This document shows, one piece after another, positions 370-5,307 of a stretch of 5,307 nt of DNA. Numbering within the stretch: the first letter of the stretch is position 1; each line of letters starts with the position of its first letter. Source of the stretch: a virus (Duplodnaviria > Heunggongvirae > Uroviricota > Caudoviricetes); IMG/VR virus record IMGVR_UViG_2778261689_000010. One strand, 5' to 3'. The notes below the pieces were generated by a model. That model was not told the DNA's origin. It ran no database searches and saw nothing but the letters and a program-made list of their open reading frames with translations. The position numbers and the translations under genes are program-made.

Positions 370-398
370 TTGAAAACATTCCTAATATTTGACATAAA
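370..398 (+). promoter_or_regulatory. Candidate sigma70 promoter for the YbcV-like gene: -35 TTGAAA (370-375), 17-bp spacer, extended -10 TGaCATAAA (390-398)
   Basis: Hexamer match and spacing read directly from the sequence, about 95 bp upstream of ATG 493. The region is AT-rich, so a chance match is possible. Confidence 0.3.
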
Positions 399-492
399 TC
401 ATCAACAAAACACAAAGAGGTCAGACCAGATTGAAGCGATAAAAACGATAATGCAAACTACGCGCCCTCGTATCACATGGAAGGTTTTACCA

Positions 493-903
493 ATGGCTCA
501 GGTTGCCATTTTTAAAGAAATATTCGATCAAGTGCGAAAAGATTTAAACTGTGAATTGTTTTATTCTGAACTAAAACGTCACAATGTCTCACATTATATT
601 TACTATCTAGCCACAGATAATATTCACATTGTGTTAGAAAACGATAACACCGTGTTAATAAAAGGACTTAAAAAGGTTGTAAATGTTAAATTCTCAAGAA
701 ATACGCATCTTATAGAAACGTCCTATGATAGGTTGAAATCAAGAGAAATCACATTTCAGCAATACAGGGAAAATCTTGCTAAAGCAGGAGTTTTCCGATG
801 GATTACAAATATCCACGAACATAAAAGATATTACTATACCTTTGATAATTCATTACTATTTACTGAGAGCATTCAGAACACTACACAAATCTTTCCACGC
901 TAA
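493..903 (+). CDS. ybcV: DUF1398-like prophage protein, YbcV-like (136 aa)
   Basis: The ORF-track frame 370..903 begins at TTG. The first ATG with a good Shine-Dalgarno (GGAAGG at 479-484, 8-nt spacer) is 493, giving 136 aa ([11 protein letters not shown]...), which matches my recollection of K-12 YbcV. ATG 451 is an alternative start without a Shine-Dalgarno. Stop TAA at 901-903. Confidence 0.7.
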
Positions 904-1980: not shown

Positions 1981-2360
1981 TGTTGCCCCCACAAACAGAC
2001 TTCACGCTCAATCTCACGACGAGTCATCAGGCCTTTCCATTGCTTACCGCCAGCGTATGTCCAGCGACGCAGCTGATCACATGCGACTTTGATATACGGG
2101 TTAATTTGTCTGGCGACAGTGGCAAGGTCTTTATTCAAGAGTGCTTTGCATTCTGCTTTGGTATACGTTTTACCGAGCATGATGTCTTTTCCGGTGTGTC
2201 CGTGACATACAGTCCATACACCAACAATATCTTTGTATGGTATGTAGCTGACACCTTCCAGACCATCGTTACCACTTGGGCCAGTGATTAACACTGATGC
2301 TATAGCAATTGCTCCGCCACCAATAGCAGCAGCAACGGCTTTTCGTAATGATGGAGGCAT
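1977..2360 (-). CDS. rrrD: SAR endolysin (phage 21 R / RrrD family, T4-lysozyme fold), 127 aa; internally shortened and probably defective
   Basis: ATG at 2360-2358 overlaps the holin stop (TAATG). N-terminal signal-anchor-release segment [20 protein letters not shown]. Catalytic triad at E35, D44, T50. C-terminus ...[28 protein letters not shown]. Stop TGA at 1979-1977 overlaps the Rz GTG. The conserved central block of the lysozyme fold is absent between ...NPYIKV and ACDQLRRW. Confidence 0.85.
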
Positions 2361-2575
2361 TATTCACCTCTCGCAGCCTTGCGCTTATCTTCTTTAATCT
2401 TGAAATAAAGGTTTGTCAGGTACGTCAGCAGGCCAAATACCAGGCTACCCAGCACACCTATTGCTGCCCACTGTGAGGGAGTGACTTTATCTAGCAGCTG
2501 TAAAAACCAGTACCCGGCACTACCTGCTGAGGTGCCATAGGCGACACCCGTTGTTAACTTATCCATGGATTTCAT
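2360..2575 (-). CDS. essD: Class II pinholin S (phage 21 S21-type), 71 aa, with dual-start motif (Met1 antiholin / Met4 holin)
   Basis: ATG at 2575-2573 with GAGGTG Shine-Dalgarno upstream. Second in-frame ATG at codon 4 (2566-2564), giving the MKSM dual start. Two TMDs and a charged C-terminal tail [13 protein letters not shown]. Stop TAA at 2362-2360. Sequence matches phage 21 S / K-12 EssD from memory. Confidence 0.9.
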
Positions 2576-2685
2576 AACCCCACCTCGCAGACAAAGCGGG
2601 TGTAAATTGAGGGAATACTACGAAACGTAACAGACTCGGAGTCAGTGAATAACTCAGGTATTGGGTTATCAGCTAATATCGAGAC

Positions 2686-2720
2686 TCAAAAAATGGAAAA
2701 ACCCGCTCGACGGCGGGTTT
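2686..2720 (-). terminator. Candidate intrinsic terminator on the minus strand (possible tR' of the late operon), 124 nt upstream of the holin start
   Basis: Minus-strand reading: AAACCCGC-cgtcga-GCGGGTTT followed by TTCCATTTTTT. The GC-rich core stem is only 5-6 bp, so strength is uncertain. No comparable T-tract on the plus strand. Confidence 0.45.
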
Positions 2721-2725
2721 AAGCT

Positions 2726-3147
2726 GTGTGACGAAGTAACCACTCTTAACAGCATAACCAATTTTTTACGTACGTAAACCACTAAATGATATTTGAGAGA
2801 ATGCTACCGAGTATTGAAAACACCACTACAAATACATAAGCAAATCTCAACAAATAACCAAAAAATAATTTCCAGTGTTATTTTTAGCCGGTTTAAATTG
2901 AACCTTCAAATTATAGAGCACTTATAAATAACAGCCGTTAATATAAATTGGCTAATAGATTTATTTTTATTCAGCCAAGAGCCATGAATAGGATTCGATA
3001 GAAAAAAGTTCAGATAAAAATAGAGATCTACTTCACAAATCAAACGAGAAACCAAAACTTACATCTTGAAATAATCACATTGATTAGATGAATATTTATC
3101 GCGCAGTGACATCATTTTTTAATAATAGTTCAAAAAAAGGGCTCACG
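2726..3147. promoter_or_regulatory. AT-rich divergent control region between holin (minus) and porin (plus); must contain the porin promoter and may contain the Q-dependent late promoter pR'
   Basis: About 420 bp of strongly AT-rich non-coding DNA with many -10-like hexamers, for example a perfect TATAAT on the minus strand (revcomp of 2910-2915) and TTGAAA at 3066-3071 on the plus strand. No -35/-10 pair with good spacing could be fixed by eye. Confidence 0.4.
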
Positions 3148-4245
3148 ATGAAAAAATTAACAGTGGCAATTTCTGCTGTAGCTGCATCAGTACTAATGGC
3201 GATGTCTGCTCAGGCAGCTGAAATTTATAATAAAGACAGTAACAAGCTGGATCTGTACGGGAAAGTTAATGCTAAGCACTACTTCTCCTCTAATGATGCA
3301 GATGATGGTGATACTACTTATGCCCGTCTTGGCTTCAAAGGTGAAACCCAAATCAACGATCAACTGACTGGTTTCGGTCAGTGGGAATATGAATTCAAAG
3401 GCAACCGCGCTGAATCTCAAGGTTCCTCCAAAGATAAAACCCGTCTTGCCTTCGCTGGCCTGAAATTCGGTGACTACGGCTCCATCGATTACGGCCGTAA
3501 CTACGGTGTAGCATACGACATCGGTGCGTGGACTGACGTCCTGCCAGAATTCGGTGGTGACACTTGGACTCAAACCGACGTGTTCATGACTCAACGTGCA
3601 ACTGGTGTTGCAACCTATCGTAACAACGACTTCTTTGGTCTGGTTGATGGTCTGAACTTTGCTGCTCAGTACCAAGGCAAAAACGATCGTAGCGATTTCG
3701 ATAACTACACTGAAGGTAACGGTGATGGCTTCGGTTTCTCTGCTACCTATGAATACGAAGGATTCGGTATCGGTGCAACTTATGCGAAATCTGATCGTAC
3801 CGACACTCAAGTTAATGCAGGGAAAGTTCTTCCTGAAGTATTTGCTTCCGGTAAAAATGCAGAAGTTTGGGCCGCAGGTCTGAAATATGACGCTAACAAC
3901 ATTTACCTGGCCACTACCTATTCTGAAACCCAGAATATGACTGTATTTGCTGATCACTTCGTTGCTAATAAAGCCCAAAACTTCGAAGCTGTTGCACAAT
4001 ATCAGTTCGATTTCGGTCTGCGTCCGTCCGTTGCTTACCTGCAATCTAAAGGTAAGGATCTTGGAGTATGGGGCGATCAGGACTTAGTCAAATATGTTGA
4101 TGTAGGTGCAACCTATTACTTCAACAAAAATATGTCTACTTTCGTTGATTACAAAATCAACCTGCTTGACAAAAATGACTTCACTAAAGCACTCGGTGTA
4201 AGCACTGATGACATCGTTGCTGTAGGTCTGGTTTACCAGTTCTAA
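3148..4245 (+). CDS. nmpC: General diffusion porin of the OmpC/OmpF family, prophage-encoded (NmpC / Lc / OmpD-like), 365 aa precursor
   Basis: ATG at 3148 with AAAAGG Shine-Dalgarno region. Signal peptide [23 protein letters not shown], with cleavage before AEIYNKD. Porin hallmark L3-loop motif PEFGGD. Alternating beta-strand pattern and C-terminal ...VYQF with terminal Phe. Uninterrupted reading frame to TAA at 4243-4245. The ORF-track start at 3088 is an unsupported in-frame extension. Confidence 0.93.
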
Positions 4246-4261
4246 TCTGATTACGAAAAAG

Positions 4262-4295
4262 ATATGTTGCGGGAGGCGTTGCCTCCCCAACATAT
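4262..4295. other. Long imperfect stem-loop (about 14 bp with one bulge, 5-nt loop) just 3' of the porin stop; possible minus-strand intrinsic terminator
   Basis: ATATGTTG(C)GGGAGG-cgttg-CCTCCCCAACATAT. On the minus strand the hairpin is followed by CTTTTT (revcomp of 4256-4261). On the plus strand it is followed by AAGTGGC, with no U-tract. Confidence 0.35.
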
Positions 4296-4383
4296 AAGTG
4301 GCTCCCTCAAGCCACTTCCTTTAGAAGCACAACCTTGCTTCTAACTATATAAACCTTCTGTTATATATTACCCTTTATTTTTG

Positions 4384-4410
4384 GGGGCGTCTCAACGCCC
4401 CATTTTTAAT
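4384..4410 (+). terminator. Rho-independent terminator on the plus strand (porin transcript)
   Basis: GGGGCGT-ctca-ACGCCCC: 7-bp GC-rich stem (4384-4390 / 4395-4401) followed by ATTTTTAATAATTTTT. The minus-strand reading has an A-rich tail, so it is unidirectional. Confidence 0.7.
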
Positions 4411-4434
4411 AATTTTTAGTAAACAATTGGCATA

Positions 4435-4818
4435 TTAATTAGAGTTATTAACAACGATATCCATCTCTAACCGGATATCTAATGCCATTAACATCCCTTC
4501 AATTATGCCCTCAGCCTTCTGTAACCTTTTCCCGATATAACCATCAGAGCAGCAATGCTTACCTGCCAGTGACATGAATGTCATACCGACTACATAATAA
4601 TCTACTAATAAATCGTGCAAATCGCTGTTGTTCTTTTTCAGACGGGCCATGCACCCGCAAATGATCATCGCGTCATCGTCACAACATTGCGGGCGAGATT
4701 TTACTTTTGAAGTAATTAATCCCTTAAAACCGGCGGCAATGGACGACCAGGTCACATCTTCATGATTATTAGCCGCCCACGCTCCCCAACGCTCAAGAAC
4801 CATCTGAATATCACGCAT
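4435..4818 (-). CDS. quuD: Late-gene antiterminator Q (phage 21/82-type, QuuD-like), 127 aa
   Basis: ATG at 4818-4816 preceded by GGAG Shine-Dalgarno (GGAGTAAGTTGATG). The ORF-track start at 4833 is a TTG with no Shine-Dalgarno. Cys-rich putative zinc-binding motifs ([19 protein letters not shown]). Stop TAA at 4437-4435. Gene order rusA-ylcG-Q is typical of this prophage family. Confidence 0.85.
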
Positions 4819-4903
4819 CAACTTACTCCACAAAAATCAGACCAGAACGCCAATTACAAGCAAAAATCAACAAAACAGTATTAGTTGATTGTTATCTCTG
4901 ACT

Positions 4904-5041
4904 TCATACTCCTGCTCCTGTCAGGGTTTTGGCGTAATTCTTCAGTATTCGGTAATCGGTCAAAACAGAACCGGGGAAACGATATAAGCGCAGACGCCCC
5001 CAGCGGTGGCGAAGAAGTTCTGCCATATTAAACTCAAACAT
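4904..5041 (-). CDS. ylcG: Small protein YlcG-like (45 aa), not in the supplied ORF track
   Basis: Translated by hand from the minus strand: ATG at 5041-5039 overlaps the rusA stop (TGATG). [45 protein letters not shown], stop TGA at 4906-4904. Matches my recollection of K-12 YlcG and its position between rusA and Q. Confidence 0.6.
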   Translation of the reverse strand: MFEFNMAELLRHRWGRLRLYRFPGSVLTDYRILKNYAKTLTGAGV

Positions 5042-5307
5042 CATTCATTCCCCATTTCGGTGATGGTCAGTTCCAGCCTCCCACCTTTGGTAACAGGCAT
5101 CTTCACAACGCGGTAATCAACGACCTGAGCATCATCCAGCCAGAAACCTGCTTTAGTGAGTGCGTCAAAAGCGGCTTTTTGCAGATTATCCAGGTCACGG
5201 CGACGGCGATCCGGCATGTGGCACTCAATGCGGATTTTCACAGGCATAGCCAGGCCGATATCCAGCATTGCGTTTTTAATGATTCGGGCGACGTTATCGC
5301 GGTATGC
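5041..5307 (-). CDS. rusA: RusA Holliday-junction resolvase, C-terminal about 88 codons (5' end lies beyond the window edge)
   Basis: Minus-strand frame open from the window edge to stop TGA at 5043-5041. The ORF-track product ...[75 protein letters not shown] matches the RusA C-terminus, including the acidic catalytic region. Confidence 0.85.

Follow-up and report, generated by a model that had tools for sequence, protein, structure and literature searches.

Intact nmpC of the cryptic prophage DLP12 as a probable autonomous porin unit between the Q gene and the late promoter region

The window, as the whole analysed stretch of 5,307 nucleotides is called here, contains a porin gene located between the antiterminator gene Q and the lysis genes of a lambdoid prophage, on the strand opposite to both. 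This position raises the question whether the gene is a complete and expressible part of the prophage, and how it is related to the late transcription unit of its neighbours. The outer-membrane porin gene nmpC/lc of DLP12 and PA-2 has been known as a prophage gene since the 1970s–80s. Our reading, held with high confidence, is that the window carries the intact nmpC of DLP12 as an autonomous porin unit, with ipeX in its 3′ untranslated region (3′ UTR) and a location outside the late operon.

Nucleotide comparison revealed that E. coli strain L9 carries the entire window on its chromosome with 100% identity. The L9 counterpart is located inside the cryptic prophage DLP12, with tRNA-Arg/intD on one side and nfrA on the other. 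K-12 MG1655 is otherwise the same as the window but carries an IS5 insertion and differs by a 114-bp deletion in rrrD and two point differences; NCM3722, which has no IS5, differs by the rrrD deletion and one point difference. The deletion belongs to the window, where the lysozyme (endolysin) gene rrrD is missing 114 bp, or 38 amino acids in frame, and is absent from both MG1655 and NCM3722. Across positions 2084-5307, a stretch that takes in Q as well as the nmpC coding sequence with its promoter region and 3′ UTR, the nucleotide identity with NCM3722 is 100%, as is that of the NmpC proteins.

The genes quuD, essD, rrrD, rzpD, bor, ybcV and ybcW flank the porin gene both in the window and in K-12 DLP12. 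On the minus strand, quuD (4435-4818, Pfam Phage_antitermQ) encodes a Q antiterminator of 127 residues, and essD (2360-2575), an S21-type holin gene identified by Pfam Phage_holin_2_1 and annotation, is the first late lysis gene. The holin, lysozyme and Rz/Rz1 genes, assigned by gene order and Pfam, follow one another from 2575 down to 1519. The preliminary description, made from the letters of the window, had proposed the NmpC/Lc type of lysogenic-conversion arrangement with a homologue of the DLP12 gene. The arrangement is borne out, but the word “homologue” proved too weak; judged by the identity to L9, the window is DLP12 itself and the porin gene is DLP12 nmpC in its uninterrupted form. 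The gene resides intact in DLP12 (qsr'), a cryptic lambdoid prophage that occupies the E. coli tRNA-Arg gene argU.

The nmpC coding sequence occupies positions 3148-4245 (+) and consists of 1098 nt, or 365 codons, read from ATG to TAA without interruption. Its product, a porin precursor of 365 residues (WP_000737280.1), was identified from the open reading frame, Pfam, NCBIfam and the annotation of the gene as “porin” in strains L9 and NCM3722. The Pfam model PF00267 (Porin_1) matches with 523.1 bits (E 5e-157) over profile positions 1-337 of 337; with a gathering cut-off of 23.7 bits, this is far beyond chance. The NCBIfam OmpC subfamily model is also passed (529.8 bits, cut-off 484), and the scores for the PhoE equivalog NF007544 (502.3, cut-off 599) and the OmpF equivalog NF007446 (474.5, cut-off 583) stay below their thresholds. 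A Shine-Dalgarno sequence, AAGGG, can be read at 3137-3141 (+), with a spacing of 6 nt to the ATG. A signal peptide of 23 residues (3148-3216, +), annotated at the equivalent position of the PA-2 record J02580, ends in ...SAQA (A-x-A type) and is followed by the mature N-terminus AEIYNKD; the solved mature OmpC chains in the PDB align from residue 24 of the query. The complete gene with its own Shine-Dalgarno sequence, signal peptide and unbroken frame, as first described, was therefore recovered in every part.

An alternative reading of 385 residues from the ATG at 3088 was rejected, as it would bury the signal peptide and is used in no annotation; RefSeq and the PA-2 record both begin the porin at the equivalent of 3148. 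Two antisense open reading frames within the gene, at 3193-4044 and 4084-4293 (the “ORF1” of PA-2), were taken as spurious.

The protein carries the features of a general porin throughout its length. All six constriction residues of OmpF (K16, R42, R82, D113, E117 and R132) are conserved in the alignment, the PEFGG motif of loop 3 is present at precursor residue 133, and the C-terminus, ...VGLVYQF, ends in the beta-signal phenylalanine aligned to F340 of OmpF. Since the sequence is 68% identical to, and aligns end to end with, solved OmpC and OmpK36, a trimeric beta-barrel of 16 strands is the predicted fold. By sequence, NmpC belongs fully to the general porins and to the NmpC/Lc prophage-porin group, for which pore activity would be expected; the gene is real and almost certainly functional. 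Sec-dependent export and removal of the signal peptide would yield a general diffusion porin of 342 residues belonging to the NmpC/Lc/OmpD clade.

The disruption of nmpC by IS5 in K-12 is textbook knowledge and was mentioned in the preliminary description. The statement is correct, and junction sequences allow the site to be given exactly. The target of the K-12 MG1655 element IS5B is the CTAA at window positions 4184-4187 (+), which is unoccupied here. The insert in MG1655 measures 1199 bp, made up of IS5 (1195 bp) and the 4-bp CTAA duplication, in agreement with the annotation of NC_000913.3. It exchanges the last 18 residues of NmpC for EGANKSLI, with loss of the C-terminal strand and the terminal phenylalanine. 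A search for IS5 ends across the window, with up to 3 mismatches allowed, gave 0 matches. Among 5426 complete E. coli genomes, 760 have the 116 nt across the site without interruption. In this respect K-12 MG1655 is the atypical case.

The relation of the porin gene to late transcription depends on the location of the late promoter. Homology to annotated features of phage 933W indicates a late promoter block (pR'-qut-tR') at 2697-2779 (-). The 933W pR', qut and first terminator align at 2779-2697 only (77% identity, E 1e-12), and a late promoter directly downstream of Q, as in lambda, was rejected on this ground. The -35 element TTTACG (2778-2773) and the -10 element TATGCT (2756-2751; TATCAT in 933W) are in register on the minus strand, and a tR' hairpin with a T-run at 2720-2699 (-) was also matched by the terminator scan. 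With a mean pairwise identity of 0.99, the block is the most conserved non-coding segment of the module. For DLP12, the lysis genes have been treated as one operon, governed by a Q-controlled regulatory region of its own immediately ahead of essD (PMC7918800). As pR' would lie between the porin gene and essD, late transcripts starting there would not cross nmpC; by their positions the gene and the S-R-Rz lysis operon are divergent, and nmpC stands outside the late transcript, not antisense within it. The opposite-strand placement between Q and S, noted at the outset, is confirmed, with the refinement that the inferred late promoter separates the porin gene from S.

The limits of the inserted segment can be drawn by comparison with relatives. 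The Stx1a phage Stx1_121427 has a Q region of 89.5% identity, and its pR' block lies within 88 nt after Q; in 933W as well, the block comes within about 88 nt of Q, in contrast to 1.7 kb in the window. QuuD and the Q protein of 933W share 77% amino acid identity and are alignable up to ...RLEMD (residue 120, window position 4459). Behind this point the tails are unrelated, namely IVVNNSN in the window, a stretch of 24 residues in 933W and ADCLR in Lambda_4B5, where the slot is occupied by a lipocalin gene on the opposite strand. The quuD codons past residue 120 (4435-4458) thus fall on the variable, cassette side. From these alignments, the porin cassette is placed at about 2780-4458, between the body of Q and pR'. 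Two features expected of a moron are present: the flanks are adjacent in the insert-free relatives Stx1_121427 and 933W, and the gene has its own terminator (4384-4407, +).

The 5′ regulatory region of nmpC, delimited by composition, comprises 368 bp at 2780-3147 (+) and is AT-rich, as originally stated, with a GC content of 29.3% against 42.6% for the whole window. It is 92-99% identical across eight phage and prophage modules. A sigma-70 consensus scan of 2780-3147 gave no promoter, and manual inspection revealed only weak candidates. Alignment with the PA-2 record places a candidate CRP site, ATAGAGATCTACTTCACAAAT, at 3020-3040 (-), 108-128 nt upstream of the nmpC ATG (J02580 misc_binding 1363-1383). 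A second CRP-like candidate, CTGTGTGACGAAGTAACCACT, is located at 2724-2744 (+) (J02580 misc_binding 1067-1087), a position shared in part with the initially transcribed sequence of the inferred late promoter. Both sites derive from the 1986 GenBank annotation of PA-2 lc, and their match to the consensus is partial. CRP dependence of nmpC in the source strain may be supposed from these sites; the promoter would probably be activated by cAMP-CRP and the porin would rise under carbon limitation. The induction of NmpC by carbon limitation in NCM3722 (PMC8144880) is consistent with the annotated CRP sites.

The closest relatives of NmpC are porins of phages and prophages. In a protein search of a phage collection, the porins of DLP12, 434B, mEp332 and others showed 99-100% amino acid identity, and those of the viable temperate phages Chlobot, mEp332, PhiR26_1, Kati and Turner 99.2-99.7%. 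Lc of PA-2 (J02580) differs by 4 substitutions (98.9% identity, 98.8% for the mature protein), and a second group of alleles, found in ev207, Perceval, 4C10 and others, is about 91% identical. In a neighbour-joining tree NmpC groups with Lc, and the chromosomal OmpD-type porins form the next clade; their mature identity to NmpC is 82.7% in Salmonella arizonae, 82.1% in Citrobacter and 79.9% in Enterobacter.

These relationships bear on two readings that would give the gene another origin or another status. It could be a chromosomal paralogue of ompC, ompF or phoE that merely stands beside phage remnants, a reading for which the NCBI pipeline offers some ground by calling close alleles “porin OmpC”, in line with the OmpC subfamily score. 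The mature identities to the K-12 proteins are, however, only 70.2% for OmpN, 68.5% for OmpC, 66.4% for PhoE and 63.8% for OmpF, against 98.8% for PA-2 Lc, both equivalog scores (PhoE and OmpF) fall short, and a Q-porin-S module in the same order occurs in 36 sequenced phage genomes (complete and mostly viable). The mature identities and the slot in these phages already refute the chromosomal reading, to which we assign practically no probability; the affinity with prophage porins, anticipated in the preliminary description, is upheld. The gene could also serve active lysogenic conversion by a viable, inducible phage such as PA-2, instead of being a domesticated gene of a defective prophage. 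This would agree with the intact Q, holin and spanin genes of the window and with the 96-99% identity of the module to that of viable phages, e.g. mEp332, PhiR26_1, Chlobot and Kati. It is nevertheless extremely improbable, given that the identical L9 locus is devoid of head and tail genes and retains the terminase as a fragment only, that the endolysin gene has lost 38 codons and that the element matches the cryptic DLP12 annotated in NC_000913.3.

The remaining alternative concerns expression. An intact nmpC might be transcriptionally silent, for example through H-NS acting on the AT-rich upstream region, and then contribute no porin; the 29% GC of that region and the failure of the scan to give a consensus promoter would fit such a state. 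Published expression data speak against it and make silence quite unlikely. Absolute proteomics attributed about 2% of the proteome to NmpC in NCM3722, the strain identical to the window over 2084-5307, which is 200 times the level in an MG1655 strain (PMC8144880); the expression has been ascribed to the absence of the IS5 insertion (PMC3045373). NmpC was assigned to the carbon-limitation sector, its level increasing when carbon becomes limiting; with nmpC disrupted, the level of OmpC is more than 10-fold higher (PMC8144880). The Perceval allele is expressed as a moron in LF82, 10-fold above the local prophage background (PMC9928086). The ability of a host to express the porin, suggested at first from the intact frame, is thus published for an allele that matches the window letter by letter in NCM3722. 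Expression from an otherwise silent prophage would imply that nmpC has its own promoter, and the preferred reading of nmpC as an autonomous unit would have it transcribed rightwards from a promoter within the 368-bp AT-rich region. In E. coli B the gene is reportedly “quiescent”, as it is termed in the title of one paper.

The 3′ UTR of nmpC extends over 163 nt (4246-4408, +) and contains the hairpin cluster reported on the 3′ side of the gene, which could be resolved into four hairpins (4262-4295, 4296-4317, 4321-4344 and 4346-4367) followed by the terminator. The fold has an energy of -62.9 kcal/mol, with z = -8.4 relative to shuffled sequences. The intrinsic terminator found by the terminator scan, GGGGCGTCTCAACGCCCC followed by ATTTTT, is located at 4384-4407 (+). 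A plus-strand terminator was accordingly present as claimed, though 139 nt past the stop codon and not directly after it. All 7 pairs of its stem are invariant among 9 distinct homologues, and the entire 3′ UTR is identical in PA-2.

In the primary paper, ipeX is reported to lie between the nmpC stop codon and the terminator. ipeX is a 167-nt RNA of DLP12 produced within the porin transcript (PMC12197685), and it represses ompC and ompF (PMC5069750; PMC3333887). On the basis of position, sequence identity to PA-2 and the literature, the hairpin cluster corresponds to ipeX and is more than a terminator region; its regulatory activity is that given in the literature. An Rfam scan of the whole window at a permissive E of up to 1 returned no match, in a database that has no ipeX family. 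Analysis of covariation in 11 homologues, which are too similar to one another for the purpose, gave one compensatory pair, a result equalled in 113 of 500 shuffles. Released within the porin transcript, ipeX would lower OmpC and OmpF post-transcriptionally, so that expression of nmpC would exchange the porins of the host instead of merely adding one.

On the minus strand, at 4254-4295, the first hairpin (H1) is followed by CTTTTTC and represents a candidate terminator, recognized from the minus-strand fold and sequence, that could stop transcripts leaving Q. The terminator scan missed it because of a bulge in the stem.

The conservation of the module is uneven. Across eight modules the mean pairwise identity is 0.996 for the signal-peptide codons, 0.986 for the body of Q and 0.984 for S, compared with 0.89 for the codons of the mature porin. 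Variable residues of NmpC cluster at 182-190, 219-232, 268-272 and 340-352, where OmpC and OmpF show indels; these are presumably surface loops.

Taking together the junction and the 3′ hairpins, we tentatively propose, as a possibility that we regard as rather doubtful, that the porin cassette (about 2780-4458) is exchangeable. Its right junction would lie inside the last codons of Q, with the Q tail varying according to cargo, IVVNNSN with the porin and ADCLR with the lipocalin. The 3′ hairpins would play a dual role; on the plus strand they would serve as the ipeX regulator and terminator, and on the minus strand as an insulator keeping transcripts of the Q gene from running antisense into the porin gene. 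The diversification of the porin surface-loop codons between flanks that stay about 99% identical lends the proposal some backing. If it were true, each swap of cargo would rewrite the C-terminus of Q and set the distance between Q and pR', which might tune the timing of late gene expression.

The gene and its location, the IS5 story, the expression of nmpC and its response to carbon limitation, as well as the ipeX 3′ UTR, are already known, and an intact allele is of little weight as a discovery, since its strong expression and the displacement of OmpC have been described before. What is added here is that the window has been recognized as DLP12, together with the exact IS5 site, the position of the cassette limits with respect to pR' and the tail of Q, and the lysozyme deletion. 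The placement of pR' is a useful correction for transcription models of the region. In a strain with the intact allele, NmpC is probably a major porin under carbon limitation, with OmpC reduced, and such a shift between NmpC and OmpC affects permeability to antibiotics, the phage receptors available and the heat tolerance that has been reported.

Among the known systems, nmpC of K-12 DLP12 (b0553) shares locus, prophage and allele with the window. PA-2 comes next, with an identical 3′ UTR, an upstream region that is about 97% identical and has the same annotated CRP sites, and the same neighbours, the porin gene being flanked by the end of Q and, at its opposite side, by a lysozyme gene (ORF2 of J02580) and Rz. 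It differs in being a viable phage, in an extra segment of 16 bp between S and the pR' block, and in a histidine of Lc at the position of OmpF R82, where NmpC of the window keeps the arginine. The OmpD-type porins of Salmonella, Citrobacter and Enterobacter form the sister clade (80-83% mature identity) and are alike in length class and constriction residues. In contrast to nmpC, the Salmonella OmpD-type gene has housekeeping neighbours on the chromosome and no phage genes around it, the neighbours encoding a molybdopterin oxidoreductase, an EamA transporter, an MFS transporter and a TetR regulator; the signal peptide of these porins is different (MKLKLVAV...), and on cursory inspection their genes apparently do not possess an ipeX 3′ UTR. 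OmpC, OmpF, PhoE and OmpN share with NmpC the Pfam family, the constriction-zone residues, PEFGG and the C-terminal YQF. However, their genes lie on the chromosome, paired with micF or micC, and the mature proteins are only 64-70% identical to NmpC.

The Stx phages, including 933W, with the order Q-pR'-tRNA-stx, resemble the window in having the same Q family and a homologous pR'-qut-tR' block, and likewise carry accessory genes between Q and S. The difference relates to the position of the cargo with respect to the late promoter. In the Stx phages it follows pR' on the late strand and forms part of the late transcript, whereas in the window it lies upstream of the inferred pR', on the opposite strand and with a terminator of its own.

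The late promoter block of the module, comprising pR', the qut region and a terminator, is located at 2697-2779 (-) and has been recognized by homology to the features annotated in phage 933W. With a mean pairwise identity of 0.99, it is the most highly conserved of all non-coding blocks in the module. The Q gene and the late promoter are thus separated by 1.7 kb, with the porin between them. The "CRP site" annotated in phage PA-2 (window 2724-2744) overlaps the initial transcribed region of this block.

The highest divergence within the module is found in the mature porin codons (window 3217-4245), the remaining parts being 94-100% identical across the compared loci L096-L101. Porin residues 1-148 are nearly invariant, and the amino acid differences are concentrated in four patches: 182-190, 219-232, 268-272 and 340-352. 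Such a patchy distribution suggests loop diversification or mosaic recombination. The Lc porin of PA-2 possesses His at residue 99, in contrast to the window porin, OmpF (R82) and OmpC, which share a conserved constriction-zone Arg. The remaining three differences between Lc and the window porin, Q149G, A151T and V154F, are closely grouped. The differences of Lc may represent real variation or errors of the 1986 sequence.

The porin module is also carried by other phages. In phage PhiR68_2 (L098, 845-1988) it is otherwise near-identical, with the porin gene annotated as two "OmpD" CDSs. When the upstream one of these CDSs is translated as annotated, starting at the ATG that corresponds to window 3088, stop codons are met, which suggests a putative frameshift in this gene. 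A laboratory stock of phage 434, isolate 434B (L006, 2208-5799), possesses the Q-nmpC::IS5-S segment of the K-12 DLP12 prophage, IS5 included. This segment, 100% identical to the window, was evidently acquired through recombination with the cryptic prophage of the host; according to the 434B record, the crossover took place in ylcG.

Two open reading frames run antisense to the porin gene: 3193-4044 (-), of 283 aa, and 4084-4293 (-), of 69 aa, the latter being "ORF1" of the 1986 PA-2 record. Neither of them is present in current genome annotations, and both are probably spurious. The ybcV reading frame (DUF1398) may be read in two forms, a long one at 370-903 (+) with a TTG start at 370 (177 aa), and the RefSeq one at 493-903 (+) with a start at 493 (136 aa); within the 177-aa form, the Pfam domain starts at residue 49.

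The SAR-endolysin gene rrrD (1977-2360, -) carries an in-frame deletion of 114 bp with the junction at 2084-2095, flanked by imperfect direct repeats CG[A/C]CTTTGATAT. The RrrD protein has thereby lost residues 93-130 (DIPETT...GDIKG), and 127 of its 165 aa remain. Among the best 25 genome matches, the deletion is common only to strains L9 and EC-07. In the source strain, the lysis cassette is probably non-functional.

At one end of the prophage in strain L9 (L001, 10836-11253), a partial AraC-family regulator pseudogene, with the annotation note "thermoregulation of ompA, ompC, lamB", overlaps a fragment of the terminase small-subunit gene. At the same end in K-12 MG1655, nohD, aaaD and tfaD are located beyond ylcI. 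The comparison of these gene arrangements implies a deletion at this end of the L9 prophage.

The Q proteins agree as far as ...RLEMD, after which their C-terminal tails (window 4435-4458, -) differ according to the cargo. In Lambda_4B5 (L094, 1802-2326), the slot held by the porin in the window is occupied by a different gene, encoding a lipocalin (Blc) and located on the opposite strand.
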